Shown in pieces: positions 13,179 through 35,744 of a DNA stretch of 64,000 bases. How positions within the stretch are numbered: the stretch's first letter is position 1; each line of letters begins with the position of its first letter. The stretch is from a virus. The translations under genes and the position numbers were made by a program. Where the stretch lies: the IMG/VR virus record IMGVR_UViG_3300005002_000001; one strand, written 5' to 3'. The notes beneath the pieces were generated by a model. The model saw nothing but the letters and a program-made list of their open reading frames with translations. It was not told the origin of the DNA and searched no databases.

Positions 13179-13228
13179 GATTCACTCTCCGTGATATTCC
13201 TCAAGACCCTCTCTGGATCTATGCGAGG

Positions 13229-14254: not shown

Positions 14255-14345
14255 GATGACGCTCTCCGCGTTCTAACCAGCTCGACCCTCTTTGGGTCTC
14301 CTTGCCAGTTAATCCTAACTATATCACACTAGTCCAAAGTGTACA

Positions 14346-14657: not shown

Positions 14658-14660
14658 GTA

Positions 14661-15020: not shown

Positions 15021-15041
15021 TTTTTCTTATACACGTCAACG

Positions 15042-16022
15042 TCACGTTTTGCGTTTGCTGACAGCACGACCTTGCATCTTTTCCCAGTCCCTATCCTCAG
15101 AGGGTCGGACTTCGAGATTCTTCTCCCAGACAGCGTCCAGGACTTTAGTGTCGACGCCCAGGTTGTCGGCTACTTTTTTGAGCGCATTGAGGTCCTTAGG
15201 AAAGCAATGCCCACCGAATCCCTTGACATATCGACCGTCGTGCGTAGGCACAGGTCCGGGAACGGCCCAATGACTGTTACCGAGACGAGTATCTAGACGA
15301 GCATATTCGACGACCTTGTCATAATCGATGTCTAGACCGCCTGCGTCCAAAGCTTCACAGATCTGAAACATCTCGTTAGCAAACGAGACTTTGGCCGATA
15401 GAAAGCAATTGGTGATATATTTGACCATCTCGGCAGTCGTGCTTGAGGTCTTGATTAGGGGTACTTTGGGGAAAGCGGTCTGAAAGATCAACTTGACCTT
15501 ATTGATATGAGGTCTGGGACCTCCCAGAATAATTCTGTTCTGGTTTCTCATATCGTCCAAGGCATTGGCTTCGGTCAAAAATTCTGGATTGAATACGACC
15601 CTCAGACCGGTCTTTTCAAAGAGCTTGTTCCATCTTTCCGTCGAACCCGGTGGTACCGTCGATTTGACGACAGCGATTCGTTCTCCCGGAATCTCGCTCA
15701 GCTCTCTTAGAGTATTTTCAACGATCGAAAGATCGGCCTCTCCGTCCTCAAACATAGGAGTCGGCAGGCAGACAAAATAGACCCCCGAAAAGTTTTCGAT
15801 TTTTTGGCATTCATCCACCAATTCCTGGACAGTCGTCACAGGATCGGGAGTCATGACGGCCGTCGGACCGACGTACATAGACACTTTCTCTCGGGGGTGT
15901 TTGCCTCCGTGAGCCTGCGTCCCTGCCCTGTCAAAAGTGTAGACGTTGAACCCTCTTTCGTAAAAGACGGTCGTCAGCGACCCGCCGACGAAACCTTGTC
16001 CGATGACTGCGATCGACTTCAT
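15042..16022 (-). CDS. ugd: UDP-glucose 6-dehydrogenase (UDP-glucose/GDP-mannose dehydrogenase family)
   Basis: N-terminal Rossmann motif IAVIGQGFVGGSL. Family-typical central and C-terminal dimerisation regions. Length 326 aa (short form). Confidence 0.75.
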   Translation of the reverse strand: MKSIAVIGQGFVGGSLTTVFYERGFNVYTFDRAGTQAHGGKHPREKVSMYVGPTAVMTPDPVTTVQELVDECQKIENFSGVYFVCLPTPMFEDGEADLSIVENTLRELSEIPGERIAVVKSTVPPGSTERWNKLFEKTGLRVVFNPEFLTEANALDDMRNQNRIILGGPRPHINKVKLIFQTAFPKVPLIKTSSTTAEMVKYITNCFLSAKVSFANEMFQICEALDAGGLDIDYDKVVEYARLDTRLGNSHWAVPGPVPTHDGRYVKGFGGHCFPKDLNALKKVADNLGVDTKVLDAVWEKNLEVRPSEDRDWEKMQGRAVSKRKT

Positions 16023-17113
16023 TTGTTATGCTTCTCCCAAGTGTGCAAGGCTGATGCCACTACTTGGTGCATATCATAATACATGTACGAGGCCAGGCGC
16101 CCGCCAAAAATGACATCGGGTCTCTGAGCCGCTAGCTCTTTGTATTGATCTCGCAGCTTGTTGTTAGCATCGTCATTGACGGGATAGTACGGAACCTTGT
16201 TCTCGCTCCAGTCGTCAGGATACTCCCAAGTGACGACGGTCTTTTCCCCGTCCTTCTTGAGATCGAAGTGTCGATGCTCGGTAATACGAGTATACGGAAC
16301 GTCTTTTTCCGTGTAGTTGACGACAGCGTTGCCTTGATAATCCTGACACTCGAGGACTTTCGTCTCGAATTTTAGACCCCTGTATTCGAGGCGTCCAAAC
16401 TGATACATGAAAAACTGATCAATGGGTCCGGTATAAACGATCTTGCGAGCGAGCTTATCGAGGATATGCCTGTCTTCGAAGTAATTGACTCCGAGCAATA
16501 CATCCGATCCTGCGAGAAGCTTCTCAAAGATGGCTGTGTAACCCCCGATGGGAATTCCCTGATATCGATCGTTGAAGTAATTGTCGTCATACGTCATACG
16601 AATCGGCAAACGTTTGATGATCGAAGCCGGCAACTTAGTCGGATGTCGATTCCACTGCTTTGTGGTGTAGCCTTCGATAAAGGTCTCGTAGATCTCTTTG
16701 CCAACTTGGGAAAGGATCCACTCTTCAAGATTCTTGGGATCCTTGATGTCCTGTCTGACTTCAGCTAGACGTGTTCGCGCCTCGAGCGGAGTCTTGACTC
16801 CCCACAGCTGATTGAGAGTCATCAGGTTGATAGGAAAAGAATAGATCTTGTCCTTGAAGTGGACCTTAGGTCGATTGACGTAGTGATTGAACGTCGTCCA
16901 TCGATTCATGTATTGCCAGATCTTCTCATTATCTGTGTGGAAGATATGAGGACCGTAGACGTGTACATGAATTCCCTCAATCTCTCGAGTGAAGCAGTTT
17001 CCGCCGATGTGATTGCTCTTCTCAATGACGAGGCACTTTTTGCCCGCTTCGGTCGCTTGTTGCGCAAAGACGGATCCGAATAGGCCGGCGCCGACGATCA
17101 AATAGTCATACAT
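16019..17113 (-). CDS. glf: UDP-galactopyranose mutase
   Basis: MYDYLIVGAGLFGSVFAQ...KCLVIEKSNHIGGNCFT...GIHVHVYGPHIFHT is the characteristic UGM N-terminus. 364 aa. Confidence 0.85.
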   Translation of the reverse strand: MYDYLIVGAGLFGSVFAQQATEAGKKCLVIEKSNHIGGNCFTREIEGIHVHVYGPHIFHTDNEKIWQYMNRWTTFNHYVNRPKVHFKDKIYSFPINLMTLNQLWGVKTPLEARTRLAEVRQDIKDPKNLEEWILSQVGKEIYETFIEGYTTKQWNRHPTKLPASIIKRLPIRMTYDDNYFNDRYQGIPIGGYTAIFEKLLAGSDVLLGVNYFEDRHILDKLARKIVYTGPIDQFFMYQFGRLEYRGLKFETKVLECQDYQGNAVVNYTEKDVPYTRITEHRHFDLKKDGEKTVVTWEYPDDWSENKVPYYPVNDDANNKLRDQYKELAAQRPDVIFGGRLASYMYYDMHQVVASALHTWEKHNK

Positions 17114-17138
17114 CTTACAACTCTACTCTCTGACGATC

Positions 17139-18137
17139 CTAAGTGTAAGTCGGACGAGACGTCTTAGTCCAACCTTCGTTGGAGTTATCAATGTGATCGT
17201 CGACAGTTCGAATGACATATTCGCTGACGGCCTCGTGCGTCATAAGCGGCCTCAGAGATTTAGCATTCGCCCTTATTTGCGAGCGCATCTCAGAATCCTG
17301 CAGCAACTTGTCGATCGTCGATTCCAGATTGACGTAATCAAAATCTAGACCCAACGACGCATAATGCACGTTCTCTTGCAGAGGCCAGGGTGCATTGTTT
17401 TGTTTGAGAGCTAGAATGCACTTGCCCATAATCAGAAATTCGTAGAACTTTCTGCTAGAAAGTCCGATGCCCGGATAATCGATGCAGATTTTGGATCGAT
17501 TGATCAGATCGTAATACTTGTCAGGCGGACATAAACCGTCGAACGTCTCGATTCGAAGATCTGAGCGTCGGGCCTTGATTTCTAGCAGCTTATCGTAGCC
17601 GACTTTTCGATTGCCAGGCCACCATTGATTGATGTTCCTATTCTTGGCCCAGACGAAGGGACGGTTGTGATCGTGAACTCGACCTCCCACAAAGATGACA
17701 TCGATATCACGATTGGGATGCTTGGGCAGAGAATCAGCGATCTGAATGATCTTCTCGGGTTGATTTGTCATCAGCCCCAACGGATAGACATCCAGTTTGA
17801 AAGGATAGAATTGTCGCTGATCGGAAATGGAAGCATGCTGAATTTTGAAGATGATGTAATCATCGATCTTGTGTCTCATCAAGACTTCATCGAATCTCCA
17901 CCAATTGAGTTTGCAGTCCGATGTTGTGCCGCCCGAACCATCATCGCCGTCAAAACAGATCAACCACCGCTTGCCGTCTCTTTCATAGACGCAGCAAGAC
18001 CAATTCTTTCCCAGTGTTTCGGGAGCCATTCTTACGTCTTCGACAGCCCCGGAAGCCCATCGAAAATAGTGTTTTCGAAGGAAATAGACGAGATGATCCC
18101 TAGGATCGACTCCGTAATGGGTGATTTTGCCCTTCAT
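17139..18137 (-). CDS. Hypothetical protein, possible glycosyltransferase (exostosin/GT-B-like C-terminal half)
   Basis: 332 aa. Its C-terminal region (DVIFVGG...SKICIDYPGIG.SSRKFYEFLIMGKCILA) looks like a GT-B fold. Lies inside the glycan cluster. Confidence 0.3.
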   Translation of the reverse strand: MKGKITHYGVDPRDHLVYFLRKHYFRWASGAVEDVRMAPETLGKNWSCCVYERDGKRWLICFDGDDGSGGTTSDCKLNWWRFDEVLMRHKIDDYIIFKIQHASISDQRQFYPFKLDVYPLGLMTNQPEKIIQIADSLPKHPNRDIDVIFVGGRVHDHNRPFVWAKNRNINQWWPGNRKVGYDKLLEIKARRSDLRIETFDGLCPPDKYYDLINRSKICIDYPGIGLSSRKFYEFLIMGKCILALKQNNAPWPLQENVHYASLGLDFDYVNLESTIDKLLQDSEMRSQIRANAKSLRPLMTHEAVSEYVIRTVDDHIDNSNEGWTKTSRPTYT

Positions 18138-18739
18138 TTAGAAATTCTTTCGAGGTGTTCCAAAGCCGGCTCAAGACTACGTGCGCTGACTTCTCGAATC
18201 GATTCGATGCCCGCAAGTTTGGCAGCGGTTGATCCTTCGTAAGTTCCTTCGAAGGCGACGACTTCTTGCGGGCTCAGTCCCATCTTCTGAAGAGTCCGCG
18301 TGTAGACGGAGGAATCGGGCTTGTCTAGACCGTCGTCTCCTGTCACCGTAACGTAATCTACGACCTCATTCAACCGGGTCCACTTCAAAAAGCTGATGAT
18401 AGTTCGACGGCTAGCGTTGCTAGCGACTGCAATCTTCATTCCTTTCTTTTTCATGTTTTCCAAGATTTCGAAAGCTCGTTCAGAAAACTTGGCTTCTGAC
18501 ATCATGTCGGTCGTAAAGCTATCGATGGCCCACTCAACGAGATCGATGTCTTCTTTCTTGATCTGACGAGTTTCGATCAGATAATCTAACCTAGAACCGA
18601 CGGAGCGCTTTTCGTAAGCTTTCTCCATGTCAGGGGACCAATAGTAACCGTGTTCCTTCAGAGCATTTTGAAACGCTCTCCGACGCAGACCTCGAGAATC
18701 GCAAAGAACGTTATCAAACGAAAAAATGAGACCCTTCAT
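18134..18739 (-). CDS. HAD-superfamily hydrolase
   Basis: Motif I IFSFDNVLCDS. Motif II-like VASNAS. Motif III TGDDGLDKPDS. Confidence 0.5.
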   Translation of the reverse strand: MKGLIFSFDNVLCDSRGLRRRAFQNALKEHGYYWSPDMEKAYEKRSVGSRLDYLIETRQIKKEDIDLVEWAIDSFTTDMMSEAKFSERAFEILENMKKKGMKIAVASNASRRTIISFLKWTRLNEVVDYVTVTGDDGLDKPDSSVYTRTLQKMGLSPQEVVAFEGTYEGSTAAKLAGIESIREVSARSLEPALEHLERISK

Positions 18740-19683
18740 TTCACTTCTCCTCGGTAGAGGGATTCAAAAATCTTGCGATACGGTTCGAAACCGGCGGGCA
18801 AGAGCATGCTGCTGACGTCCGGGACAGTTGGGACGGCGGCAAAGACATCAGAATTGATAGCCTCCGGAGGCAGAACTTGTTCGGCGATGCCGACAGATCT
18901 AGAAACGACGGGTACACCTACTAGACCGCATTCCAAGAGCGCCTGTGGACCACCTTCGTATCGAGCTGTCACGGGGTAGATGTCAAGCGTCTGATAGAGT
19001 TCGTTCAGCACTTCTTGAGAAGGTCGTTCGAAGAAGGAATAAGGGATTCCTTCGATTTCCAACTCATGAACTACGTACTGACGGCGCCAACCAGCGAGGA
19101 CGACGTGAGGCTGGGGCATCTCACCGATGACAATCCTGTGGTCCTTCTGCCACCGTCGGTACTTCGCGATGAGAAAGTCCACTAGCAGGTCGGGTCCTTT
19201 TTCTAGTTTAGGAGACTTGAGATCGTGACCCTCAGTATCTCTTTGAAACGATCCGATCAAATAACCATCGGTCGGCAATCCGTGCTTTTCTCGAAGCTCG
19301 TATTTGTCTCCCGTCTTCCGCCATATATTTTGATTTGCCCAGTAAGGAGCAAGGAAGATAGGTTTTTTCGTCAGAGGACGAATGAAATCGTAAGTGTGCT
19401 GATTGTAGACGTGATAGGCTGTCGTAATAGCATCTCTATCCGCAAAATCGGCTCGCTCTCGATGTCCGAATTTCTCAGGCACGATATGATGAACTGTCGT
19501 TAGGACGGTCTTTTGAGAGAGTAGATGTCCCGGAACTTCTCTCCATCTCCAATCGCTAAGCAACCAAAGAATGTGTGCTCCTCGAAGATCATAGACGGAA
19601 ATGTCAGGATTTCCTTCGATCCACTCTTTTGTCAGACGATCGCAAATCCAATCTTCAGCGGCCGGAAGAGTCCAGATTTTCAT
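18736..19683 (-). CDS. Putative GT-B glycosyltransferase
   Basis: C-terminal EGGPQALLECGLVGVPVVS resembles the GT1/GT4 nucleotide-sugar binding motif. Confidence 0.4.
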   Translation of the reverse strand: MKIWTLPAAEDWICDRLTKEWIEGNPDISVYDLRGAHILWLLSDWRWREVPGHLLSQKTVLTTVHHIVPEKFGHRERADFADRDAITTAYHVYNQHTYDFIRPLTKKPIFLAPYWANQNIWRKTGDKYELREKHGLPTDGYLIGSFQRDTEGHDLKSPKLEKGPDLLVDFLIAKYRRWQKDHRIVIGEMPQPHVVLAGWRRQYVVHELEIEGIPYSFFERPSQEVLNELYQTLDIYPVTARYEGGPQALLECGLVGVPVVSRSVGIAEQVLPPEAINSDVFAAVPTVPDVSSMLLPAGFEPYRKIFESLYRGEVK

Positions 19684-20656
19684 GTTGCCACACGGCCTTC
19701 TCGATAAACTCGACGTAAGAATCTGCCACTTTTCTGATATCGAGATACGACGGATCTACCTTGATCTTCGGTAGCTCGCCAAGGCCACCAAAGTCCGCCG
19801 GCAGATCGGGCGGATGATCGTAGTCCTTGAGGGTGAAGTCGTACTTTTCTTTTTCCGCAATGACGATTCCGTTATTCCGGACAATTTCTTTTGTTCCGCC
19901 TGTTTCGGCGCAAATGACAGGAGTTCCCTGGGAAAGGGATTCGATGACGGAATTTGGACAGTGATCTCCCCACGCCAGATGGATCATCCAATTGGAAACG
20001 ACAAAAAGTTTCAGACACTGATCGTGAGGTAATGATCCGGTATAGAAGATGTGAGGATCGGCGACTTGATGATCCGGATTGCTGCCCAGTACAACTAAGC
20101 AGCTGTTCGGATACTTCTTCTCTTTGAGATATTTGAAGCAGCGGATGTTTTCCTTGAGACGCTTCTGAGCGTGCCAATTGGCCGAACAGACGAACATCAT
20201 CTCGTATTCATTTCGAATCTTCATGAAGCCAGGCAATGATTCCTTCATGACTTCGAGATCGATGCCATTATGAATGACTTGCCCGAACTTCGGAGCTCCC
20301 CACCATTTGGTGATCTGATCTCGATTGAATTCGGATTGAAAGACTACTCCGGCGGCTCGCTTGTAAGTCTCCAGGATCCCTCTGTTTCTCCACAAAAATT
20401 CGGAAGGTTTGGACCAAATACCATCCAGCCTTTGGATCAGAGGTTTTTTGGGGTCAAGCTGGTGTGACGGTTCGATAAAGACGATGGCCACATCATAGTC
20501 AGACACATCGGCTAGTGTGTGTCCATTTTTCGCTAGCCGATCAGCTAATCGAAAAGCAAACGTATTCGGTCCCGAACGAGACGCGAAATCGACGCCCGTA
20601 AAGAGGATCTTCATCTCTTTCTGAGTTCTTGCTCGATGTCTTCGTAGAAGACGCAC
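19655..20656 (-). CDS. Glycosyltransferase family 1 (GT4-like)
   Basis: N-terminus MKILFTGVDFASRSGPNTFAFRLADRL is typical of a GT-B N-domain. C-terminal GTPVICAETGGTKEIV motif. Confidence 0.55.
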   Translation of the reverse strand: MRLLRRHRARTQKEMKILFTGVDFASRSGPNTFAFRLADRLAKNGHTLADVSDYDVAIVFIEPSHQLDPKKPLIQRLDGIWSKPSEFLWRNRGILETYKRAAGVVFQSEFNRDQITKWWGAPKFGQVIHNGIDLEVMKESLPGFMKIRNEYEMMFVCSANWHAQKRLKENIRCFKYLKEKKYPNSCLVVLGSNPDHQVADPHIFYTGSLPHDQCLKLFVVSNWMIHLAWGDHCPNSVIESLSQGTPVICAETGGTKEIVRNNGIVIAEKEKYDFTLKDYDHPPDLPADFGGLGELPKIKVDPSYLDIRKVADSYVEFIEKAVWQHENLDSSGR

Positions 20657-21018
20657 TCATTGAAGATCGGAGCGATGTGTCTCAGATCTCCTGTCGGGAT
20701 CTTGTCGATGGGCGCTTCTTGAAAGACAGGGGCTACCGAATAGTCCCAAGTCTCGGGGTCTTCCGTCAGGACTTTTGTGTCGCTGAATTTGATCGCTTCG
20801 TAGTATCTTTGCGCGATCCAATCTTTGGTGACTTCGGACGGATTGAAAGATGATTTCGAGAAGACAGAATGGACGACATCTTTGATGACAGAGTACATCT
20901 CTTCCATGTCTTCTTTTTTGAGACCCTTGCCCGTGCCCGCAAACTTTTGCAGCTTGAGGTTAAGGTGAAATTCCAGCAGTTCAGCAAACCGCGGGGGAGT
21001 TTTTGTGGCGTCGGTCAT
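20611..21018 (-). CDS. Hypothetical protein
   Basis: 135-aa ORF between a GT gene and a 2OG oxygenase. No motif recognised. Confidence 0.3.
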   Translation of the reverse strand: MTDATKTPPRFAELLEFHLNLKLQKFAGTGKGLKKEDMEEMYSVIKDVVHSVFSKSSFNPSEVTKDWIAQRYYEAIKFSDTKVLTEDPETWDYSVAPVFQEAPIDKIPTGDLRHIAPIFNECVFYEDIEQELRKR

Positions 21019-21040
21019 CAGTCAACTCTACTTCCTCTTT

Positions 21041-21838
21041 TTAAGTTGTTTTGTTTTCAACTCGTCCCTGGGACCGAATCCTTCTAAATTCTTCTAGTTC
21101 CGGAGGTTCGACCGCTCCCGGAAGCTTCTTGAAGACCGTAGATCGATAAGGCGTCGATTCTAATTCATCTTCCGAAGCGGGAGTGTAGTAGTACACAGCG
21201 AGGGATTTTCTCGACATGCCTTCGGGACATGCTAGCGGCACGGGATGTCCGTGATTGGATCCTTGATCCGTTCGAAAGACGATCAGACGGTTGAACGTCG
21301 GAAGAATAGTCTTTTCGAGTTTGGTCATGTCTCCATTCCAAATCTGAAGATGACCTTCGTATTCATCCTTCCAATCCTTGTTGAGATAGACGATTGCATT
21401 GACTTTTCGAAAGGCCTTGAGAGTTCGATGGATGTTATAGTCTTCGTGCACATCCAACTTACCTCCTGGCATGATCTGATGCAGACCTCCGCCGTTCAGA
21501 CTTGGGTCGGGAATCAGATCATTTAGCCCCGTTAGCTTCTTCAGAAATTCGACAAAAGGACCATTCATGAAATCAAAGAAACTTCGAAAACAAGGATCGA
21601 GCTGGGTCAGATCGTTGAAGGCCAGCTTCTTTTCGAGAGGATTGCTGTAAGCCCACCATTTGAATTCTTGCGGATCCGGAAACTTAGAGACGATCTCTTC
21701 CAAAGCTTCAGGCACAAAAAGATCGTCAATGACGATGTGCTGAAACGGTTGACTTTCCGCGAACTGCTGCTTCATGACTTGCGGATTGACGACCCAAGAA
21801 GCTCGATCTCGTCGGATGTAACGACCCATGTGACTCAT
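21041..21838 (-). CDS. 2OG-Fe(II) oxygenase (prolyl-4-hydroxylase-like)
   Basis: LDVHEDYN (H-x-D) plus a downstream His in SNHGHPVP, within a cupin-like beta region. Confidence 0.55.
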   Translation of the reverse strand: MSHMGRYIRRDRASWVVNPQVMKQQFAESQPFQHIVIDDLFVPEALEEIVSKFPDPQEFKWWAYSNPLEKKLAFNDLTQLDPCFRSFFDFMNGPFVEFLKKLTGLNDLIPDPSLNGGGLHQIMPGGKLDVHEDYNIHRTLKAFRKVNAIVYLNKDWKDEYEGHLQIWNGDMTKLEKTILPTFNRLIVFRTDQGSNHGHPVPLACPEGMSRKSLAVYYYTPASEDELESTPYRSTVFKKLPGAVEPPELEEFRRIRSQGRVENKTT

Positions 21839-22746
21839 TTGGAATGATCCTTGCTAATGTTTTCGTATAGCTTTTTGATATTATCGATGTGAAATTTTTT
21901 GCCAACTTCGAAAGCCGCATCGCTCATTTCTCTTCTGTGAGTCGGATCTTTCGAAAGGAGAAAATTGAGTTGCATGAGCATGTGATCTTTATCGGGCACG
22001 AACGCACACGCATTTTCTCCAAATTCTAGGTAGCTTTCGTATGGAATGCAAATTGTGGGGATCCCATAGCTCTGAAAATTAGAAAGCTTGGTGTTCGGCT
22101 TATATCTCTTCATAAGATTGATGACGTGTTCATTCATCTTGCCATCGTGCTCGGCGAAAACTATGCCGATGTCGATCTTGCGAAAGATATCGTCGCACTC
22201 TTCTCTAGTGTTGGGATGGACGGAAATGAAAAACGCATCCCAAGCAGAGCACATCTCTTCTATTTCTTTGACGGCACTTATCTGTTCGGGCAGCCCGACG
22301 TAACCTACCGTCTTGACTTTTTCTCTGAATTCTGCTCTGAGATTATCAAAGTTTGTCGTGTGATGCGGGATGACGTAAGCTGGCTTATTTGAAGCTGCTT
22401 GGACATCAGACTTTACTAGACTGTTGTTGACAACAAAGAAGTCGCACTCTTGGTGAGTGTAATCTTTCAGATTGTCGATCTTCTTGCCTCTAAAGACGGC
22501 GTCACCGACAGGCATATCGGCGATATCATATCCGACGATGCAACCTTGCTTCTTATAGAAATCGACGACGCTAGCCGAATAATTCCGTAGCAGAATGACG
22601 ATCTTGTTTTTCGATTTCTCGTTCGAGCCGAGTTCGATGAATTGGCCGCCGATTCTTTGGGCCATTTGAATCCCTCTGATATACCCAGAGGTGCGAGAAG
22701 CCATGCCAATGAATGTTATCATTTTTTGATCTGCGATTCGATCCAA
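21835..22746 (-). CDS. Hypothetical protein, possible glycosyltransferase
   Basis: 303 aa inside the glycan island with Rossmann-like alternation. No definitive motif. Confidence 0.3.
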   Translation of the reverse strand: MDRIADQKMITFIGMASRTSGYIRGIQMAQRIGGQFIELGSNEKSKNKIVILLRNYSASVVDFYKKQGCIVGYDIADMPVGDAVFRGKKIDNLKDYTHQECDFFVVNNSLVKSDVQAASNKPAYVIPHHTTNFDNLRAEFREKVKTVGYVGLPEQISAVKEIEEMCSAWDAFFISVHPNTREECDDIFRKIDIGIVFAEHDGKMNEHVINLMKRYKPNTKLSNFQSYGIPTICIPYESYLEFGENACAFVPDKDHMLMQLNFLLSKDPTHRREMSDAAFEVGKKFHIDNIKKLYENISKDHSK

Positions 22747-23684: not shown

Positions 23685-23701
23685 GCTATGAATCTACACA
23701 A

Positions 23702-28934: not shown

Positions 28935-29679
28935 TTTGCCCCCGCTTACGTAGCATGTCGCAAGCTCGTTCGTAACTTTCGTGAGTGCCGGCGTCGACCC
29001 ATCCGCATTCGACTCGATATGTTTTTCCGTCCATGCGCTTTACCATAAAGCTATTGACGTCGCTAATTTCGTATTCTCCGCGAGCCGAGATGACTAGCTT
29101 TCGGATGATTCTAAAGACAGCAGGAGTGTACAGATACAGTCCAAGCACGGCATCTCGGCTTGGAGGCTCTGTTGGTTTTTCAATGATATCGATTACTTGA
29201 CCTGCGTCGTTGTATGCGACTACACCAAACCGCTGGGGATCGGGGACTTCTCTAACGAAGAGTCCATACTCATCATCCGATGAAACAAATGATGAGATGT
29301 GTTTGCTGATCGACGATGGATCCTCGAAGATATTATCGCCGAGAATGACAGCGAACTTGTCGTGACCGACAAAATCTTCGCACATTCCTAGCGCTGCAGC
29401 GATGCCATTGGCTTTGTCCTGGACTCTGTATGTCAGTCGACAATTGTAATCTTTTCCCGATCCAAGCAATTGGGCCAACGCTCCAAAGTGCTCAGGTCCG
29501 CTAACAATCATCACATCATCGATGCCGGCGGCGAGCAAAGTGCTCAGCACATGTTCGATTATGGTCTGCCGACCAATCGGAAGAAGCGATTTATTGGTAG
29601 CACGAGTCAACGGGTATAGGCGAGATCCAGTGCCGCCGGCCAAGATGATACCCTTCTTTTTCATTCGTACTTCTTCCAT
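28912..29679 (-). CDS. rmlA: Glucose-1-phosphate thymidylyltransferase (sugar nucleotidyltransferase)
   Basis: KGIILAGGTGSRLYPLTRATNKSLLPI is the canonical G-x-G-T-R-L signature. Confidence 0.8.
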   Translation of the reverse strand: MEEVRMKKKGIILAGGTGSRLYPLTRATNKSLLPIGRQTIIEHVLSTLLAAGIDDVMIVSGPEHFGALAQLLGSGKDYNCRLTYRVQDKANGIAAALGMCEDFVGHDKFAVILGDNIFEDPSSISKHISSFVSSDDEYGLFVREVPDPQRFGVVAYNDAGQVIDIIEKPTEPPSRDAVLGLYLYTPAVFRIIRKLVISARGEYEISDVNSFMVKRMDGKTYRVECGWVDAGTHESYERACDMLRKRGQNEKNDHR

Positions 29680-29871
29680 TTCCCTTTTTCAACAATTTCC
29701 GTATTTTCGAAAAATTTAGAAGATTTCAATAGGCCATGGCTGTATTTTTCTATTACAATCACGTCTCCCCTTCTGAGTCTAAAGAGAAAACGAATCTTAC
29801 TCTTTTTGCGATTGAAATCTCGATCGGGTCCTTCAATTAAGAGTAGGCCATTAAGGTATACTTTTTCATCT

Positions 29872-30627
29872 TTATTCAATAAATCCTCTAGCTCTCAAAA
29901 ATAGAGCTTCATCGCGTTGAAAGCGGGCATCGGGCGTCTGGTAGGTCTCCGGAACATCTTTGATGCTATAGTGATACATGCATCGAGGGAGATAAGCATG
30001 TTTCTTCGACTTGTAAAGAGCCGGTAGATAGATCGCTTGGTCACCCGCGCGTCGAATGTATTCACCGTCTGGACCTCGGAAATTGTCGTCCTTGACACCG
30101 TTCAGCAGATGCTTTCGAAAAGTTTTGAGGTGCGACGATACCCACGGATGACGATAGGGATCAGCCCCGGGTGGCATGGGACCTGAGATGTTTTTGTCGC
30201 TGAAGGACCAGCGATGGTTGGTCCACAGCAGATCGCATCCCGATTCCTTGTAAGCGGAATCGATGATAGTCAAAGCATCCAGATCGGTGAGCCAATCGTC
30301 GGCGTCGATTCGACAGATGATGTCATCGTCTTTGCAATCTTTCATGCCCCAAAGAACATTGGCGACTTCCCATCGCTTTTCGGAATTCCAATGGCAGTTG
30401 ATCTTCCTTTCGACGTCTCCCATGACAAGTTCGCTAGGATCTCCGATCAAAGCACCGAATGATCTCAAAATGCTGCTGCACTTGCCTCGTTCGGCTTCCG
30501 AAGAGCAGTCATCGATCAGATTGATCTTCCAATTATCGTACGACTGTCCGCAAATCGAATGTAAAAATCGTGGCAACGTGGCCGACATGTTAAACATCGG
30601 CGCTACGAAAACGAATCTGTTGCTCAT
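29872..30627 (-). CDS. Glycosyltransferase family 2 (GT-A)
   Basis: VFVAPMFNMSATLPRFLHSICGQSYDNWKINLIDDCSS: N-terminal GT2 region with a DxD motif. Confidence 0.5.
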   Translation of the reverse strand: MSNRFVFVAPMFNMSATLPRFLHSICGQSYDNWKINLIDDCSSEAERGKCSSILRSFGALIGDPSELVMGDVERKINCHWNSEKRWEVANVLWGMKDCKDDDIICRIDADDWLTDLDALTIIDSAYKESGCDLLWTNHRWSFSDKNISGPMPPGADPYRHPWVSSHLKTFRKHLLNGVKDDNFRGPDGEYIRRAGDQAIYLPALYKSKKHAYLPRCMYHYSIKDVPETYQTPDARFQRDEALFLRARGFIE

Positions 30628-31694
30628 CCCACCCTCAGAGTCTGGCCCGATTGGGCCGATTGACGAATCGCCATTAGTAGCCGAAAATCATTCCAGCCCT
30701 GTTGAGCATCATAGATCAGCGGCGATCCCATTTTTACGTGATCTTTGAAGTTGGACAGCAGATACTCGATAGCTTCTTGATGATCTCCCAATTTGGGGTA
30801 AGACGCCTGCCAAACAACTTTTCTGCCTCGTTCAGGCAATTCTGCTTCTATCTTCACTGTCTTTCCCTCGATCGAATCTTCAAGCGGAATTCTTTCGATA
30901 TCGACAGGAGGGTTGAACGTACTTCCCCCGGCTTTCAAAATGTAGAGCGAAAAATCATTGTCATCATTTGAGATGGTTCCCTTTTCGCAGTAGATTCTCA
31001 ATGATCTTGGCCGCCGGAATCGGCATCGATTACCGATGGAGCTGAAGTTATAGACGGCGGTCTGACCCGATTCGAATTTTATCGTTCCGAAGTCCCAATT
31101 TTCGACGTGATGTTGCAAGTTGAAATTACCATCGAGATAGGGAGGAACTTGCATCGAATGAGACGTGCCTTGAATGGTGATTGGTCGCTTCGAAAATCCG
31201 ATGTAACGTCGTAGTTGAGCCAAGCCGTGATATTCAAAAGTCCGACAATCATTCATTACAACGTGCGGAGGACCAAGAAATTCGTATGCATTTTCAAGCA
31301 GCTTCATTTTGAACTGCTCGCTCGGCAAGAATGCTGTCTGTTCAGCGACTGCTACTGATACGCCCTTATGACGAGCGTACTCGGGCACCGCTTTGCTCCA
31401 AATGGGAGTTTCTACGAAGATAGGTTTGCCGAAATTGATGAGACTAAGAGTGACCTGCTCGATGGCTCCGGAGTTGACAACAACTACAAGAGCGTCCGAC
31501 TGTTCGGCTAGATCTTTCTCATTTGAGAAGTGCTTGAATCCGAATTTGTCGACGACCATCTTAGCTTTGTCTGGATTTCGATTCCAGAAACCGACGACCT
31601 CGTACTTGTCCTTCAGATAATCGAAGATGGGGGCGTAGTAATCTTGCATGCGTCTTCCAGCGCCCCAAATGCCGATTTTGAGCTTGTCATTCAT
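30624..31694 (-). CDS. Gfo/Idh/MocA-family NAD(P)-dependent oxidoreductase (sugar dehydrogenase)
   Basis: N-terminal KIGIWGAGRRMQDYYAPIF...EVVGFWNRNPDKAK is the Rossmann/GFO_IDH_MocA pattern. Confidence 0.6.
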   Translation of the reverse strand: MNDKLKIGIWGAGRRMQDYYAPIFDYLKDKYEVVGFWNRNPDKAKMVVDKFGFKHFSNEKDLAEQSDALVVVVNSGAIEQVTLSLINFGKPIFVETPIWSKAVPEYARHKGVSVAVAEQTAFLPSEQFKMKLLENAYEFLGPPHVVMNDCRTFEYHGLAQLRRYIGFSKRPITIQGTSHSMQVPPYLDGNFNLQHHVENWDFGTIKFESGQTAVYNFSSIGNRCRFRRPRSLRIYCEKGTISNDDNDFSLYILKAGGSTFNPPVDIERIPLEDSIEGKTVKIEAELPERGRKVVWQASYPKLGDHQEAIEYLLSNFKDHVKMGSPLIYDAQQGWNDFRLLMAIRQSAQSGQTLRVG

Positions 31695-32407
31695 AACGGA
31701 TAGGCCTTGTCTTCGAAGATCTTCTTCAAACGATCGTGATTTTCTTTGCCTTTGAATCGTCTGTCATATTGCTGAGGATCGACAAACGAATACATGACAC
31801 GAATGGATCCTTTAGGATTGACATCCGGAATGACGCCGTGTAGCAACGACGTATCAAAAAGCAAGGCATGATCATTTGATGTGCCCAGGGCATTCGTCTC
31901 ATATTTTCGAATGAGCATCTCATCAAACTTTTGATCATTGATCATGGTCCGATGGGATCCCAAGATGTATTTGAGGCGCGGTTCGTGACCCTCAAATTCG
32001 GGATAGAAGATTATCTTATGCGCCGGCGGCATTGCTCCGACGACAGGATTGTCTCCAAATTGGTAGGTGTCACGATGCCAGTCCTGGTATGATCGACCCG
32101 GATCGGTCTTTACGACTTGGATGTGAGCTAGCGTCAGATTTCTGCATGTAATCTGGTCTAGCAAGTAAGGTAGATTGCCATCGACGACAAGATCTATAAA
32201 AGCCTCGTCATAATCGTAAACAGTCGGACGAAGAGTGTAAGAATTGAGACTTTGTTCCCAACTAAATCCTTCTTTGATCTTGCCTTGCCACAGATCCTTG
32301 AGGATCGGCAAAACCCTAGAAGAATTGACAGGTATGAACGTCAGACCCTCGATGTAGTATCGCTCGGAGTCTGTCAAGTTCGAGCGATCGAATTCGACAA
32401 GTTTCAT
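31691..32407 (-). CDS. Phytanoyl-CoA dioxygenase-like 2OG-Fe(II) oxygenase
   Basis: WHRD (H-x-D) and a distal His (GSHRT), in a PhyH-like arrangement. Confidence 0.4.
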   Translation of the reverse strand: MKLVEFDRSNLTDSERYYIEGLTFIPVNSSRVLPILKDLWQGKIKEGFSWEQSLNSYTLRPTVYDYDEAFIDLVVDGNLPYLLDQITCRNLTLAHIQVVKTDPGRSYQDWHRDTYQFGDNPVVGAMPPAHKIIFYPEFEGHEPRLKYILGSHRTMINDQKFDEMLIRKYETNALGTSNDHALLFDTSLLHGVIPDVNPKGSIRVMYSFVDPQQYDRRFKGKENHDRLKKIFEDKAYPL

Positions 32408-33289
32408 TTACCACTCCCAGAGTTCGGATTTCTTTTCGAACTGCTTTCGAGTTTCGAGAGCTGTCTTGATGCCTTCGGCATTGGTCAGTAGGACCTGCCC
32501 GTACTGGATCTCTTCGTCTTTCATCTGACGATCGTCCAAAAACATGCGGCGGTCGAGGACGATAAGCTCCTTCGTCGGATCTTCGATCTTGTCGATGACC
32601 TTCGAACACTGGATATTCTCGTCGGAAGTATCCGGGTTGTAATCATCGAAAAGCAAGAAACAATTCCAGCGGTCCTTGCAGAGGTCCCAGTCGGTTTGCA
32701 CGGCCTCGGCCCGATGATCGCCGTCGATGTAGACTAGATCAAACTTTTCGGGAGGCATTTGAGTGAGCGCCGCTTGCGACGTTCCCTTGACGAACTTGAT
32801 CAGGTTGAGCCACTCGGGCGGGAAGATTTGGGCGATCATCCGCAGATGTTCCTCGTTGAAAACGGGATCGATAGTCGTCACTGCTCCCGGTTCAGTAACA
32901 CCCATTTCGCTCAGCGCCCGAGCGGCACAAACGGCAGCGTAGCCGCGGCCAAAACCGATCTCGAGGAAATTTTTGAGATTGTGTTGCTTGATGAGGTAAT
33001 GAATCAAGATACCACGCTCGTAGTTGGGCCTGAAGAAAGCGCCGGCTTTGTTCCAAAGCTCGCTGTTCTTGTCTCGATTTTTCTTGGCGGTGAATTCACC
33101 GATCCAATCGAAATCGCCCAAAGCGACGCTAGCCGGGTCGACGTCCATCGCTCGAAGCTTGTCCTGGATCATAATTCTCTTCATCTTGCAATCCTTCTTC
33201 AAAATCCGTCGTTGTTTTCTTCCCGATAGAGGATGACAGGTTCGCCCTTCATTAGGACTTTCTTCTTCCATTCGGGATGCTTTTCGCAA
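32408..33289 (-). CDS. Class I SAM-dependent methyltransferase (TylF/CmcI-like sugar O-methyltransferase)
   Basis: Motif I FLEIGFGRGYAA. Characteristic FDLVYIDGDHRAEAV. Confidence 0.6.
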   Translation of the reverse strand: MRKASRMEEESPNEGRTCHPLSGRKQRRILKKDCKMKRIMIQDKLRAMDVDPASVALGDFDWIGEFTAKKNRDKNSELWNKAGAFFRPNYERGILIHYLIKQHNLKNFLEIGFGRGYAAVCAARALSEMGVTEPGAVTTIDPVFNEEHLRMIAQIFPPEWLNLIKFVKGTSQAALTQMPPEKFDLVYIDGDHRAEAVQTDWDLCKDRWNCFLLFDDYNPDTSDENIQCSKVIDKIEDPTKELIVLDRRMFLDDRQMKDEEIQYGQVLLTNAEGIKTALETRKQFEKKSELWEW

Positions 33290-33801
33290 AATTCATCCAC
33301 CGCGGCAGCGACGCCATGCTTCTCGGTCTCGACAGGCTTGGTGGCATCCTTGACTTCTGAGTAATCCTCCCGAGTCGAATAAAACAGATCCTTGTCGGCC
33401 CATCGTCCGTGATAATCGTCGATGATTATAATCGAATCCCTGAGCACATTGTTAGTCGTCAGCAGCTCGAGTTCTTTGGAGACGGTGTAGTAATTGTGAT
33501 CGCCGTCCAAAAAGATGAGCTGGTACTTCGAATCATTGGCCGGCAAGAAATCGAGGCTGTTGCCTTGAATCAGATTGAGTCGCTGGTTTTCGTTGAGACC
33601 GAAGTACGTCGCGATGACCTTGACTTCGTCTCGAATCAGGACGTCGACAGCATCGTGAATGAATCGTTTTTTCATCATCATGAGGTGATGAATGATGGGA
33701 AAGGTAGTCTGGCCCCGATCGACGCCGATCTCGAGGATCTTCGGACTTTCGAAGAGACTCAAAAATTCGACGGCAAAAGGGATATATCCGTGATGAGCCA
33801 T
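33199..33801 (-). CDS. Class I SAM-dependent methyltransferase (TylF/MycF-like sugar O-methyltransferase)
   Basis: ILEIGVDRGQT and QLIFLDGDHNYYTV. A paralog of the preceding gene. The start ATG at 33801 overlaps the upstream TGA as TGATG (the track ORF begins at an upstream GTG, 33804). Confidence 0.6.
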   Translation of the reverse strand: MAHHGYIPFAVEFLSLFESPKILEIGVDRGQTTFPIIHHLMMMKKRFIHDAVDVLIRDEVKVIATYFGLNENQRLNLIQGNSLDFLPANDSKYQLIFLDGDHNYYTVSKELELLTTNNVLRDSIIIIDDYHGRWADKDLFYSTREDYSEVKDATKPVETEKHGVAAAVDEFCEKHPEWKKKVLMKGEPVILYREENNDGF

Positions 33802-35744
33802 CACTTATCTCCCTTCTTGACGCCGCTACACCAACCTTGCATGCATGCCGGTTGCGGCTTCGATGCTCTGATCCAAGGGGTAGGCTTCGAAAAGTCGATT
33901 CGATTGTGGAAAATCCACCCACCCATTCGATCCTTCATCTTGATCGCTAGCTCCTTGATTTCGTCATCAGTGACTTGAGACCAGGGCTTGTCAAAGAATT
34001 TGTTGTTGGCGGCCGTATCTTCCTGAGAATGATTGTACAGAGACGTCCAGTGCTTAGACCAGAAGTTCTTGTAAGTGTGAATCTTGCGCTCCAAATCATA
34101 CCACGAATAGTGGTAGACGCCCGGCACGTTGACACACACCTGATTGAACCATTGGATGTACGCCTCGAGCGCCTGTGGGTTACCCTGCAGCGCTGCCTGA
34201 CGAGCTCCTTCGACTTCCTGCTGGTAAAAAGTGGCGAAAGGAACCCTCTCTAGGGTGTCTTTGTAGATGTAATCATCGCCATCCGAACCAGCGGAATACA
34301 TCGTACCGTCGGTATCGATCTTGCGTTGGTCTTTGGGCAACCCGTGCGTGATGCGTGGATTATTACGACTCAACCTCCATTTCCACGGATTGACGTCGAC
34401 TCGAATCTTGGTCTCGTCTCCCCAGTATTCGATGACGGGCAGAGCGAGGAGATCAGCTTCCTTCGGGAAGGCCGCGACGACCTGCTTGATCTTTTCGTAA
34501 TCAGATTCGTGCACGACCTCGTCGATGTCGACCTGCCACAGGAAATCTCCCGTGCAGCGTTCGCGCGCGACGGCCTTCTGCTGTCCATTGAAGAGAGCGA
34601 AGCGCTTGTCGTTCCAATCCCTAACGTGTTGGAAGGGTTTGATACGCGGATCGAGCTTTTGCAGCTCTTGCAGACGCTCCCAAGTCCCGTCCGTCGAGCC
34701 GCCGTCGACGATGACGACCTCGTCGCAGAATCCCAAAAGAGATCCGATGGACTCTTCCCAGGGATAGTTCTGCTCGATGCAATTGCGAGTTTGCGTGTAA
34801 CCTGAGATAGTCGTCTTGTGGTCGGCTAGCTCGCGGACAGCGTCCCAGAATCGACCCGGAGAATTCTCGAGGTAATTCGAAATGGTTTCAGGTTCGTCGG
34901 ATGCAAACCAATTTTCTGAGGCATGCTGGACATGCGAATTGAGGTGTAGCTTGCATCCCAGAAGTTTGGCTTCGATTACCATCCGCGGACACGTATCTCC
35001 GCCGCGGGGGAGGTAAGCAAATCCTTCGGCCTGAGCGATTCTTTCGAGAGCTTGATCGTATGGCACGTTCCAAAGAACGTCTACCGGATAGTTCTGCTCT
35101 TGGGCCCACTTTTGGGCGTCTTCGAAACCCTTGATCCAGGAATTCGAGCCTAGGACGATCCACTTGTCGGATTTCTTGCCCTGGTTTTTCTTCCGAAGAT
35201 CGGCCATGGCTGACAGGTGCTTCTTCGAAAAGACTGAAGATAGCACGGTGCTTTTGACCGATCTTAGATCGGGAAAGCGCTCGTAATACCGTTCGGCTTG
35301 CTGTTGCGACATCCAGAAGATGCTCTTGGCTCTCGAAAAGAATGTCGAGATGAGCTTACCACCCGGTTGCTTATCACAATCGCAGGGCTTACCTTCGGTG
35401 TCCTGATGCTTTTCGATAGAGCGATGCTTGCAGAATTTGTAGTCGTACTCGACGATCGAGTAATTCGTTCGCTGAGCTATTAGCGTCAGCAGGCTAGGAT
35501 CGACCTGAGAGATATTGCCGAAGATCCAGTACTTGCCTAAATTGGCCGCCACTGTTTCGGCGGACAGTTCAGCCGATCTAATGCGATGCAGCTTGAAGGG
35601 TGACGTCTCGAGGAGAGCTTCTGTCGTAAGCTCAGCTCCTCCCTCGTAGTCGCTAGCGAACATGTCCGAAACGAAGATGATCTTGGCGTCAGGCGGCAGC
35701 GATTGGTTGGGCCTGATGAATACTCGTTTGGTAAAGTCCAGCAT
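33801..35744 (-). CDS. Large multi-domain glycosyltransferase (contains a GT2 domain)
   Basis: 647 aa. FCDEVVIVDGGSTDGTWERL is the GT2 DxD-type signature in the C-terminal half. The N-terminal half is a separate alpha/beta domain. Confidence 0.55.
   Translation of the reverse strand: MLDFTKRVFIRPNQSLPPDAKIIFVSDMFASDYEGGAELTTEALLETSPFKLHRIRSAELSAETVAANLGKYWIFGNISQVDPSLLTLIAQRTNYSIVEYDYKFCKHRSIEKHQDTEGKPCDCDKQPGGKLISTFFSRAKSIFWMSQQQAERYYERFPDLRSVKSTVLSSVFSKKHLSAMADLRKKNQGKKSDKWIVLGSNSWIKGFEDAQKWAQEQNYPVDVLWNVPYDQALERIAQAEGFAYLPRGGDTCPRMVIEAKLLGCKLHLNSHVQHASENWFASDEPETISNYLENSPGRFWDAVRELADHKTTISGYTQTRNCIEQNYPWEESIGSLLGFCDEVVIVDGGSTDGTWERLQELQKLDPRIKPFQHVRDWNDKRFALFNGQQKAVARERCTGDFLWQVDIDEVVHESDYEKIKQVVAAFPKEADLLALPVIEYWGDETKIRVDVNPWKWRLSRNNPRITHGLPKDQRKIDTDGTMYSAGSDGDDYIYKDTLERVPFATFYQQEVEGARQAALQGNPQALEAYIQWFNQVCVNVPGVYHYSWYDLERKIHTYKNFWSKHWTSLYNHSQEDTAANNKFFDKPWSQVTDDEIKELAIKMKDRMGGWIFHNRIDFSKPTPWIRASKPQPACMQGWCSGVKKGDK

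Follow-up and report, generated by a model that had tools for sequence, protein, structure and literature searches.

The 64,000-nucleotide stretch of DNA analyzed here (the window), which belongs to the IMG/VR virus record IMGVR_UViG_3300005002_000001, contains a glycan-biosynthesis island of ~21 kb (15042-35744; all coordinates are positions in the window). This island is very probably a phage-borne, variable glycan cassette anchored by core glycosyltransferase (GT) genes. The cassette occupies a recombination-prone site between three conserved GT genes, which encode a 647-aa bifunctional protein and the two GT4 enzymes GT4a and GT4b, in widespread, large, distantly T4-like environmental phages. 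It is expandable and feeds a lineage-wide soluble glycosylation system without an exporter of its own. A broader proposal, put forward here with considerable reserve, is that this large tailed-phage lineage may glycosylate its own particles (or genome) as a core trait, with the swappable cassette providing a strain-specific methylated glycan coat.

Regarding the core GTs, the 647-aa protein had originally been predicted to be a multi-domain GT2 enzyme. It is indeed multi-domain and includes a GT2 part, but its predicted structure (predicted local distance difference test score, pLDDT, of 90) is a fusion of GT-B and GT-A folds, in which an N-terminal GT4-like GT-B domain (~20-308) is followed by a GT-A/GT2 domain (~310-470) and a conserved C-terminal domain. 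Foldseek ranked SunS first, followed by the teichoic-acid GTs RmlT, TarS and TarP and then by two-domain polysaccharide synthases; the GT-A domain is closest to SunS, a peptide glycosyltransferase. The invariant columns of the family include the DGGSxD and DxDE motifs of the GT-A domain and an ExxxxxxxE-type motif of the GT-B domain. The GT-B domain also contains an invariant Cys/His cluster (C105, H113, C121 and C123), which is unusual for GT4-like enzymes and is possibly a metal site. At least 80 full-length homologues (45-61% identity) are present on IMG/VR contigs of up to 322 kb, and the family has more than 2146 members in the protein database, at 50-60% identity and nearly all ~640 aa in length. 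Among 185,579 bacterial and archaeal species genomes (one for each species), only seven matches were obtained, all on contigs of metagenome-assembled genomes (MAGs), and the family is absent from isolate genomes.

Every window protein was mapped by tblastn onto 160 loci, 80 of which were anchored on the 647-aa protein and 80 on the late sigma factor, for which at least 80 homologues were found on contigs of up to 370 kb. GT4a occurs in 72 of the 80 sigma-anchored loci with a median identity of 61%, and GT4b in 79 of them with 56%. The median identities in the same loci are 62% for the sigma factor and 49% each for the exonuclease (Exo) and the baseplate protein gp25; that is, the core GTs are conserved like the late sigma factor and more than gp25 or Exo. 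Pfam, PHROG and structure-database matches bear out the earlier assignment of both genes to GT4. They had been viewed as extra genes outside the island, but they are conserved core genes of the whole lineage, and the island is not a self-contained unit. GT4a and GT4b are related to each other (hhalign probability 96%), and the best sequence matches of GT4a among solved structures are GT4-family GT-B enzymes, including sucrose-phosphate synthase (6kih), TreT and BshA. Two cultured phages, Flavobacterium phage vB_FspM_immuto (MW353176) and Microcystis phage Mel-JY01 (PP395634), possess a homologous GT pair with an adjoining sugar cluster; GT4a is 34% identical to their GTs, and the search also returned Rhodothermus phage RM378 as a distant match. 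Two candidate relationships were rejected. A link of the 647-aa family to the hypothetical protein encoded after the GT pair of Mel-JY01 found no support (hhalign probability 0.2%), and profile comparison of the core GTs with the T4 alpha-glucosyltransferase a-gt showed no similarity (hhalign probability <10%).

Seven relatives (L030, L038, L041, L042, L044, L045 and L062) possess, in this order, the genes for the 647-aa protein, Exo, GT4a, GT4b, u111, the sigma factor, u125, u465 and gp25, and in these loci the 647-aa gene is separated from Exo by just 42-843 bp. In others, the same two genes are separated by sugar genes that differ between relatives and occupy 3 to >10 kb (5-9 kb, for example, in L028 and L049). 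In the 12 loci in which both ends are present, the interval measures between 42 bp and 9.3 kb, and it exceeds 10 kb in most loci. A second sub-lineage has, in this order, PhoH, Exo, GT4a, GT4b, a protein that corresponds to the 647-aa protein in its N-terminal domain only, GT4c and variable genes. In 80 loci, the 747 open reading frames (ORFs) that follow the 647-aa gene were grouped into 225 families, including 123 singletons. A Pfam census of 150 family representatives returned mostly glycan-tailoring enzymes, namely several methyltransferase families, GT1, GT2, cupins, sulfotransferases, nucleotidyltransferases, DegT aminotransferases, formyltransferases and Gfo/Idh/MocA oxidoreductases. 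Methyltransferases dominate this variable gene pool, and the largest family is represented by a GDP-mannose 4,6-dehydratase. In the window, the variable interval extends from ~9.7 to 33.8 kb and includes cargo unrelated to glycans.

At short evolutionary distance the cassette is stable. Close relatives carry syntenic islands: L164 (NCBI JAXOUH010026281.1) is collinear with window positions 23.6-45.5 kb at 72-77% DNA identity, and the nearest relative, L172 (IMGVR_UViG_3300044998_000776), has the 2OG oxygenase, GT4c, GTd, the HAD hydrolase, GTg and Glf in the same order at 79-94% protein identity; other relatives carry differing sugar genes. L172 has a mosaic Ugd gene, which shows 65% protein identity amid neighbors of 86-94%, has its 3' fragment in duplicate and comes with ~1.2 kb of additional DNA. 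Three cassette genes are semi-core, encoding a small GT2 enzyme, GT4c and the short Ugd-like enzyme. The last is among the best conserved, with homologues of 57-80% identity in 27 of the 80 sigma-anchored loci, and in many relatives its gene is the cassette gene directly upstream of Exo. Regarding mobile elements, counterparts of a GIY-YIG/NUMOD3 homing endonuclease encoded in the window (2986-3576) are 29-42% identical in phages that are otherwise 90-95% identical, and L172 has two further GIY-YIG-like inserts within its glycan cassette (L172 positions 1874-2215 and 4998-5300). Such mobile nucleases may drive the shuffling of the cassette.

The region is phage-borne, in line with the original prediction. 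The window consists of a minus-strand block (1520-35744) followed by a plus-strand block (36461-63226). To the left of the island lie a gp25-like baseplate wedge protein (1520-1993), the above-mentioned homing endonuclease, a gp55-like late sigma factor (5383-6162), the PD-(D/E)XK exonuclease and NAMPT with NMNAT-Nudix, and to the right lie ClpP (39545-40150) and a PIN-PhoH protein (41194-42546); baseplate-like paralogues are also among the flanking genes. Homologous loci are found on viral contigs of up to 370 kb, large members of the lineage being NHDW01000006.1 (305 kb), IMGVR_UViG_3300005529_000001 (369 kb) and IMGVR_UViG_3300020473_000010 (289 kb), and an identical stretch, with an identical Glf protein, is present in the JGI contig Ga0068519_1000029. 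The GC content is 0.478 in the island and 0.486 in the neighboring core genes, and their codon usage is correlated (r 0.94). An origin as host chromosome or prophage flank was rejected on the basis of the phage genes on both sides, the uniform codon usage and the restriction of homologues to viral and MAG contigs. There is no integrase-family match and no lysogeny gene in the window. Megablast of 23 kb against 50,697 deposited phage records gave no DNA-level match, and tblastn of the 647-aa and 465-aa proteins against the same records gave nothing; cultured homologues were obtained for GT4a only and are distant. The whole genome probably exceeds 250 kb, and the window represents about one fifth of it. 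Homologues of the 647-aa protein also occur in MAGs labeled Gammaproteobacteria, Halobacteriovorax, Methylococcaceae, Alphaproteobacteria, Pelagibacter and Acidobacteriota (L165-L171), the Methylococcaceae-labeled match being a single 305-kb contig. The most likely explanation is that phage contigs were binned into these bacterial MAGs, and the labels are therefore not evidence of host identity.

The island comprises 23 co-oriented, tightly packed minus-strand ORFs (Table 1), 14 of which have a clear family assignment by Pfam, NCBIfam or PHROG, which substantiates the prediction of a glycan-biosynthesis island. Among the enzymes named beforehand, Glf, the short-chain dehydrogenase/reductase (SDR), the Gfo/Idh/MocA oxidoreductase, the HAD hydrolase and the two sugar methyltransferases (both Methyltransf_24) were recovered as such. 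The count of at least eight GTs stands for GT domains, of which there are eight, and is reduced to seven for supported GT genes; these start at 17139, 18736, 19655, 25260, 26216 and 29872, in addition to the two-domain 647-aa protein (33801). Together with GT4a and GT4b, the GT domains number 10. The ORFs at 20611, 21835, 23702, 24535 and 31691 are not counted as GTs, because searches of Pfam (E up to 5), PHROGs and PDB (phmmer) and hhalign comparison with the GT families of the window gave nothing significant. One of the two predicted 2-oxoglutarate (2OG)/PhyH oxygenases stands (21041-21838), and the second (31691-32407) is a guess (PDB E=0.33). The predicted Ugd passes the cut-off of the nucleoside diphosphate (NDP)-sugar dehydrogenase subfamily, but it covers only positions 2-295 of 413 and lacks the C-terminal UDP-binding domain. 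Similarly, the families of RmlA, RmlB and RmlD are correct, but each protein scores below the NCBIfam equivalog cut-off, so that nucleotide and sugar specificity is not fixed. RmlC was not found in the island, with no match to dTDP_sugar_isom or cupin families, and the dTDP-L-rhamnose pathway is therefore incomplete. The RmlA-RmlD-RmlB trio without RmlC also occurs in the relatives L017, L018 and L039. An SDR resembling GDP-fucose synthase (Fcl) is a possible stand-in for RmlC. No collagen-like or Ser/Thr-rich target protein was found in the window.

Table 1. Genes of the glycan cassette, the accompanying cargo and the downstream core genes, listed by decreasing coordinate
Feature	Coordinates	Strand	Evidence and remarks
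Core 647-aa bifunctional GT	33801..35744	-	Upstream anchor of the cassette
S-adenosylmethionine (SAM)-dependent methyltransferase (Methyltransf_24)	33199..33804	-	Pfam E 5.3e-9; L164 orthologue 83% identical
SAM-dependent (O-)methyltransferase (Methyltransf_24 / Methyltransf_3)	32408..33289	-	Pfam E 1.4e-15; homologues in 10/80 loci anchored on the 647-aa protein
238-aa protein, possibly a PhyH-like oxygenase	31691..32407	-	No Pfam/PHROG match; WHRD...H motif (HxD...H-like); sole PDB match is the weak 4nao 'putative oxygenase'
Gfo/Idh/MocA NAD-dependent sugar oxidoreductase	30624..31694	-	Pfam E 1.1e-12; weak NCBIfam match to UDP-GlcNAc 3-dehydrogenase
GT2 (GT-A) glycosyltransferase, semi-core	29872..30627	-	Pfam E 5e-10; 38/80 loci anchored on the 647-aa protein; in relatives usually the first gene after the 647-aa gene
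RmlA-like sugar-1-phosphate nucleotidyltransferase	28912..29679	-	Pfam NTP_transferase E 1.1e-51; TIGR01207 206 bits vs cut-off 361
RmlD-like NDP-4-keto-6-deoxyhexose reductase	28110..28934	-	Pfam RmlD_sub_bind E 2.5e-23; TIGR01214 87 bits vs cut-off 224
RmlB-like NDP-glucose 4,6-dehydratase	27148..28143	-	TIGR01181 307.5 bits vs cut-off 365; Pfam Epimerase E 7e-59
GT-B (GT1/GT4-like) glycosyltransferase	26216..27175	-	Weak Pfam Glycos_transf_1 and Glyco_trans_1_2; homologues in 15 loci
GT-B glycosyltransferase (Glyco_trans_1_2)	25260..26252	-	Pfam E 1.3e-9
242-aa protein	24535..25263	-	Sole match Glyco_tranf_2_5, E 0.06; no PDB, PHROG or hhalign support
278-aa protein	23702..24538	-	No significant match
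Extended SDR, GDP-fucose-synthase (3,5-epimerase/4-reductase) type (Fcl-like)	22719..23684	-	Pfam Epimerase E 3.4e-42; best NCBIfam match GDP-L-fucose synthase, 94.9 bits, below cut-off
303-aa protein	21835..22746	-	No match
2OG-Fe(II) oxygenase, prolyl-hydroxylase-like, not TET/JBP type	21041..21838	-	Pfam 2OG-FeII_Oxy_3 E 2.9e-16; weak NCBIfam matches to peptide oxygenases YhhC and FlmC
135-aa protein	20611..21018	-	No match
GT4 glycosyltransferase (GT4c), semi-core	19655..20656	-	Pfam Glycos_transf_1 E 2e-10; phrog_2170 E 3e-17; 31/80 loci anchored on the 647-aa protein
GT-B (GT1/GT4-like) glycosyltransferase	18736..19683	-	Pfam Glyco_trans_1_4 E 5e-6; homologues in 14 loci
HAD hydrolase, beta-phosphoglucomutase / sugar-phosphatase type	18134..18739	-	Pfam HAD_2 E 2e-23; TIGR02009 E 6e-15
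Probable GT-B glycosyltransferase, paralogue of 25260-26252	17139..18137	-	blastp E 3.9e-5; hhalign 96%, E 2.9e-9, 201 columns
UDP-galactopyranose mutase (Glf)	16019..17113	-	Pfam GLF E 2.6e-79
Short NDP-sugar 6-dehydrogenase (Ugd-like), 326 aa, semi-core	15042..16022	-	TIGR03026 192 bits; phrog_9148 E 8e-52
Non-glycan cargo in the same variable interval (PTH2-like protein, two tRNA-CUA genes, dual-specificity phosphatase, NAMPT, NMNAT-Nudix, 2Fe-2S ferredoxin, DUF7768)	9735..15041	-	Pfam, ARAGORN, Rfam; presence differs among relatives
PD-(D/E)XK exonuclease (Exo), core	8925..9734	-	Pfam PDDEXK_1 E 4.5e-17; phrog_69; downstream anchor of the variable interval
Core GT4 glycosyltransferase GT4a	7628..8869	-	Pfam Glycos_transf_1 E 9e-12; phrog_2170 E 2e-25
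Core GT4 glycosyltransferase GT4b, paralogue of GT4a	6461..7615	-	Pfam Glyco_trans_1_4 E 1.6e-10; GT4-conflict 30.5 bits

None of the 23 island proteins has a convincing transmembrane segment, and therefore no initiating phosphoglycosyltransferase, flippase, polymerase or exporter is encoded by the island. Consistent with this, there is no Pfam match to a WecA/WbaP-type initiating enzyme and no polytopic membrane protein among the 23 ORFs, and no Pfam family of flippases, polymerases, chain-length regulators or ABC exporters is represented in the island. To that extent, the earlier statement that Wzx, Wzy, Wzz and ABC exporters are lacking was correct.

On the basis of these gene assignments, the cassette is proposed to make activated sugars in the cytoplasm during infection. 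The RmlA-like enzyme would activate glucose-1-phosphate, and the RmlB-like enzyme would yield an NDP-4-keto-6-deoxyhexose. In the absence of RmlC, this intermediate might be converted into a D-configured 6-deoxyhexose by the RmlD-like reductase, or into an L-sugar through 3,5-epimerization and reduction by the Fcl-like SDR. Glf would supply UDP-galactofuranose, and the short Ugd-like enzyme would probably supply a uronic acid, provided that it works without its C-terminal domain. The sugars may then be tailored by Gfo/Idh/MocA oxidation and by methylation, and an oligo- or polysaccharide that differs between strains would be built by the six extra soluble GTs and the four core GT domains directly on an acceptor that is soluble and made by the phage, with no lipid carrier, flippase or exporter of the phage's own. 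If virion proteins are the acceptor, the glycan would have a conserved core and variable outer parts, similar to those of chlorovirus capsids and Megavirinae fibrils.

With regard to the acceptor, the original prediction named the host envelope and virion proteins as candidates. These two are not separable by sequence, and the phage's own DNA is a third candidate that it had not considered. The virion proteins of the phage (capsid, tail or baseplate fibers) are tentatively favored here, at somewhat less than an even likelihood. As the core GTs persist throughout the lineage even in the absence of sugar genes and are conserved like the sigma factor, the acceptor would be conserved and phage-made, rather than a host surface glycan. 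The size of the 647-aa family together with its absence from isolate genomes likewise argues for a conserved, phage-intrinsic acceptor. SunS as the nearest GT-A match and the prolyl-hydroxylase-like oxygenase of the island are also counted in favor of virion proteins. There are experimentally studied precedents as well, namely the Megavirinae gene clusters for fibril glycosylation (PMC10117803), which with the capsid glycan clusters of giant viruses are the nearest studied systems of this architecture, and the glycans on capsid and tail-tube subunits of mycobacteriophages (as summarized in PMC12619734).

Several points weigh against a virion target. The window includes neither the capsid nor the tail-tube genes, the phage is uncultured, and the case for virion glycans in this lineage comes from genes. 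A fold does not identify an acceptor, as the same GT-A and GT-B folds serve GTs acting on lipids, teichoic acids, small molecules, proteins and DNA; the published phage DNA GTs include TarP-like and MshA/sucrose-phosphate-synthase-like enzymes (bioRxiv 10.1101/2023.12.21.572611; PMC13326640). The core GT pair sits in a nuclease and late-sigma neighborhood, not in a structural module, and its cultured homologues adjoin replication genes. No late-promoter signal was found: in up to 83 relatives, the sequences preceding the 647-aa gene, Exo, GT4a, gp25 and Ugd show no enrichment of a T4-type late motif. TATAAATA occurs once upstream of the exonuclease gene (0.75 expected), and sigma-70-like sites are fewer than the shuffled expectation. 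In addition, the Ugd-like enzyme is missing a domain that activity normally requires, and the published view of similar cyanophage and pelagimyophage islands is host O-antigen modification (PMC7824862, PMC7029224).

Remodeling of the host envelope is the explanation that survives best beside virion glycosylation, although it is rather unlikely. The phage GTs would act on undecaprenyl-phosphate-linked intermediates of the host, the host would supply the initiating transferase, the flippase or ABC exporter and the ligase, and the altered O-antigen or capsule would block superinfection by competing phages or change the recognition of the cell by grazers. It is the standard published interpretation of the lipopolysaccharide (LPS)-like clusters in P-SSM2-type cyanophages and of the islands of pelagimyophages, which are likewise polymorphic (PMC7824862, PMC7029224, PMC12801897). 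The gene families of the variable region are those of O-antigen loci, GT4b is above the cut-off of the Pfam family 'GT4 in conflict systems', and an array of baseplate- and receptor-binding-like genes lies near the island, as in the host-recognition cluster of pelagimyophages. The lack of transmembrane segments in the island is also compatible with an envelope target, because bacterial O-antigen GTs are mostly soluble or peripheral as well. On the other hand, the island would depend on the host for all of the above-mentioned membrane components, the chain-length regulator included, and host Wzx and Wzy enzymes are usually specific for their own repeat unit. Retention of the three core GT genes at 50-60% identity even without sugar genes is hard to reconcile with variable host glycans, and the absence of lysogeny genes from the window is a further point against this explanation.

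Hypermodification of the phage DNA is an improbable alternative. In this case, GT4a, GT4b and the 647-aa protein would glycosylate a hydroxylated base, as do the alpha- and beta-glucosyltransferases of T4 and the pathways based on 5-hydroxymethylcytosine (5hmC) or 5-hydroxycytosine, and the sugars of the variable cassette would diversify the modification against host restriction and glycosylase defenses. DNA would be a perfectly conserved acceptor. The gene for the alpha-glucosyltransferase of T4 lies between the recombination-nuclease gene 47 and the late sigma gene 55, and the GT4 pair of the window lies between the PD-(D/E)XK exonuclease and the gp55-like sigma factor; the order nuclease-GT-GT recurs in the phages immuto and Mel-JY01, and a phage DNA-glycosylation cluster can contain Glf (PMC13326640). 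However, in comparison with T4 the genes run in the opposite order with respect to transcription and the nuclease belongs to another family, and the lack of profile similarity to a-gt and the prolyl-hydroxylase type of the island oxygenase also argue against DNA. None of the 61 window ORFs matches the thymidylate-synthase-like hydroxymethylases, TET/JBP dioxygenases or C5 DNA methyltransferases that define such clusters, an absence that is not conclusive because the window covers about one fifth of the genome. Known DNA glycans consist of 1-3 sugars, in contrast to the 10 GT domains encoded here, and the relatives add methyl-, sulfo-, formyl- and aminotransferases. Virion proteins are preferred to DNA because this number of GTs and this range of tailoring enzymes fit a surface glycan far better than a base modification of 1-3 sugars.

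Another soluble product, either an intracellular or released polysaccharide (a methylated cytoplasmic or matrix glycan, with the 647-aa protein as co-polymerase) or a glycosylated small molecule, is very unlikely: two-domain polymerases (chondroitin and heparosan synthases) are among the fold matches, a methylmannose-polysaccharide mannosyltransferase is among the GT-B matches and methyltransferases prevail in the variable gene pool, but there is neither a phage precedent nor an export route, and no polyketide synthase, non-ribosomal peptide synthetase or terpene genes occur in the neighborhood.

Several further features of the region were noted. NAMPT and a bifunctional NMNAT-Nudix protein (11733-14254, minus strand) form a two-gene NAD+ salvage module, which is located between Ugd and the exonuclease gene in many relatives and is removed from the nearest relative, L172, by a clean indel of ~2 kb (window 12110-14106). 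Two tandem tRNA genes (11047-11122 and 11127-11201, both on the minus strand; Rfam 59 and 53 bits) have the anticodon CUA, which reads amber UAG, and a PTH2-like peptidyl-tRNA hydrolase (10141-10446) is encoded ~600 bp downstream of them, past a 116-aa ORF; TAG is the stop codon of just 4 of the 61 window genes. The same position, from the phosphatase and NAD-salvage genes to the PTH2-like gene, keeps one or two tRNAs in 32 of the 60 loci scanned (including L082, L086, L090-L103, L108 and L111-L140), with differing anticodons: CUA (amber), UUA (ochre, L099) and many of the type U-UCA-A, often with an 8-nt loop. ARAGORN calls the latter Glu, 'ttca' or 'tc', and they could read UGA. Stop-codon recoding tied to these suppressor-type tRNAs was rejected, as stop usage in the relatives does not track the anticodon type; in the UCA-type loci, TGA still accounts for 71% of the stops in long ORFs. 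Two ORFs with hydrophobic segments lie in the left part of the minus-strand block. A 325-aa protein (2009-2986, minus strand) contains 14% proline and four hydrophobic segments at its C-terminal end, and a 111-aa protein (6159-6494, minus strand), encoded between GT4b and the sigma factor and present in 49 of the 80 sigma-anchored loci, has one strong hydrophobic segment.

The presence of LPS-like islands in large aquatic phages has been known from the first cyanomyovirus genomes onward, and modification of the host surface has been the usual assumption. Glycan islands in big aquatic T4-like phages are thus already established at the genomic level (PMC7824862, PMC12801897, PMC7029224). What is new here is the expandable cassette bracketed by core GT genes, the GT-B + GT-A structure of the 647-aa protein, the abundance of its family and restriction of that family to phages, and the cultured phages with a homologous GT pair. 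The retention of three GT genes across thousands of metagenomic relatives, even without the cassette, points to a conserved and probably phage-made acceptor. If virions (or DNA) of these phages do carry strain-specific glycans, host range, particle stability, grazing and adsorption in water and soil would have to be viewed anew, and virus-encoded glycosylation would extend past giant viruses and mycobacteriophages. The system would then be a tailed-phage counterpart of giant-virus fibril glycosylation, or an O-antigen-like 'serotype' system for bacterial viruses. The phages immuto and Mel-JY01 make the acceptor question testable at the bench.

In comparison with known systems, the island differs from two types of surface-glycan locus. 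The GtrABC serotype-conversion cassette of temperate phages consists of the flippase GtrA, the bactoprenol GT GtrB and GtrC, with an integrase and att site, in contrast to an island without membrane proteins in a window without an integrase match. A bacterial O-antigen or capsule locus of the Wzx/Wzy or ABC-transporter type requires an initiating phosphoglycosyltransferase and export parts that were not found in the island. Phage DNA glycosylation systems resemble it in combining GT-A (TarP-like) and GT-B (GT4-like) enzymes with sugar-nucleotide genes (epimerase, HAD, nucleotidyltransferase and, in one case, Glf) and in varying between phages (bioRxiv 10.1101/2023.12.21.572611, PMC13326640), and T4 likewise has a nuclease, a GT and gp55 in adjacent positions. 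The island differs from them in that no base-hydroxylating or -methylating partner occurs in the window and in that it has far more GTs and tailoring enzymes than known DNA glycans need. As summarized in PMC12619734 (for Freeman et al. 2023), phage-encoded soluble GTs of mycobacteriophages modify the phage's own capsid and tail-tube subunits. The operons consist of few genes and belong to actinobacteriophage siphoviruses, unlike the 23-gene island.

Among the closest known systems are the islands of large T4-like aquatic phages. Prochlorococcus phage P-SSM2 has an LPS-like cluster of 15 genes that is polymorphic between relatives (PMC7824862), the Synechococcus phages S-SCSM1 and S-SCSM2R have LPS-like clusters, with 13 GTs and 22 genes in S-SCSM2R (PMC12801897), and pelagimyophages contain GT-rich hypervariable islands (PMC7029224). 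As in these islands, genes for NDP-sugar synthesis (including UDP-glucose dehydrogenase and epimerases) are combined here with numerous GTs from several families. In both cases, the genes occupy a plastic region flanked by conserved T4-like modules, are polymorphic between relatives and include no exporter. The island thus has three features of an LPS-like island in this group of phages, being flanked by phage genes, composed of NDP-sugar genes and GT families and polymorphic in content. It differs in belonging to another phage lineage, in its contents (Glf, an RmlABD-like module without RmlC and Methyltransf_24 enzymes) and in being bracketed by three lineage-wide core GT genes that stay when the cassette is missing, a feature not described for the cyanophage clusters. 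Moraphages, which are aquatic phages of 200-307 kb with four core GT orthogroups, PhoH, a sigma factor and T4-type baseplate and neck proteins (PMC12619734), are similar in being large, aquatic and distantly T4-like and in sharing these core proteins. Rhodothermus phage RM378 is a distant relative both in the moraphage tree (PMC12619734) and in the GT4a search made here, and moraphages may be the same or a sister lineage; the moraphage paper (PMC12619734) describes no variable sugar cassette between core GTs.

Chloroviruses have multi-domain GTs, and the chlorovirus protein B736L is among the GT-B matches, a relationship of shared folds. Megavirinae possess clade-specific clusters of 6-33 genes for fibril glycosylation (PMC10117803, PMC9614988). 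Giant viruses have eukaryotic hosts and their virion glycans have been shown chemically, whereas the phage glycan is predicted from genes. As in the phage cassette, their clusters encode pathways to nucleotide-activated sugars of bacterial type along with methyltransferases and soluble GTs, some of them multi-domain, in clade-specific sets, and the giant-virus glycan is built in the cytoplasm without the secretory or lipid-carrier route of the cell, as is proposed for the glycan of these phages.

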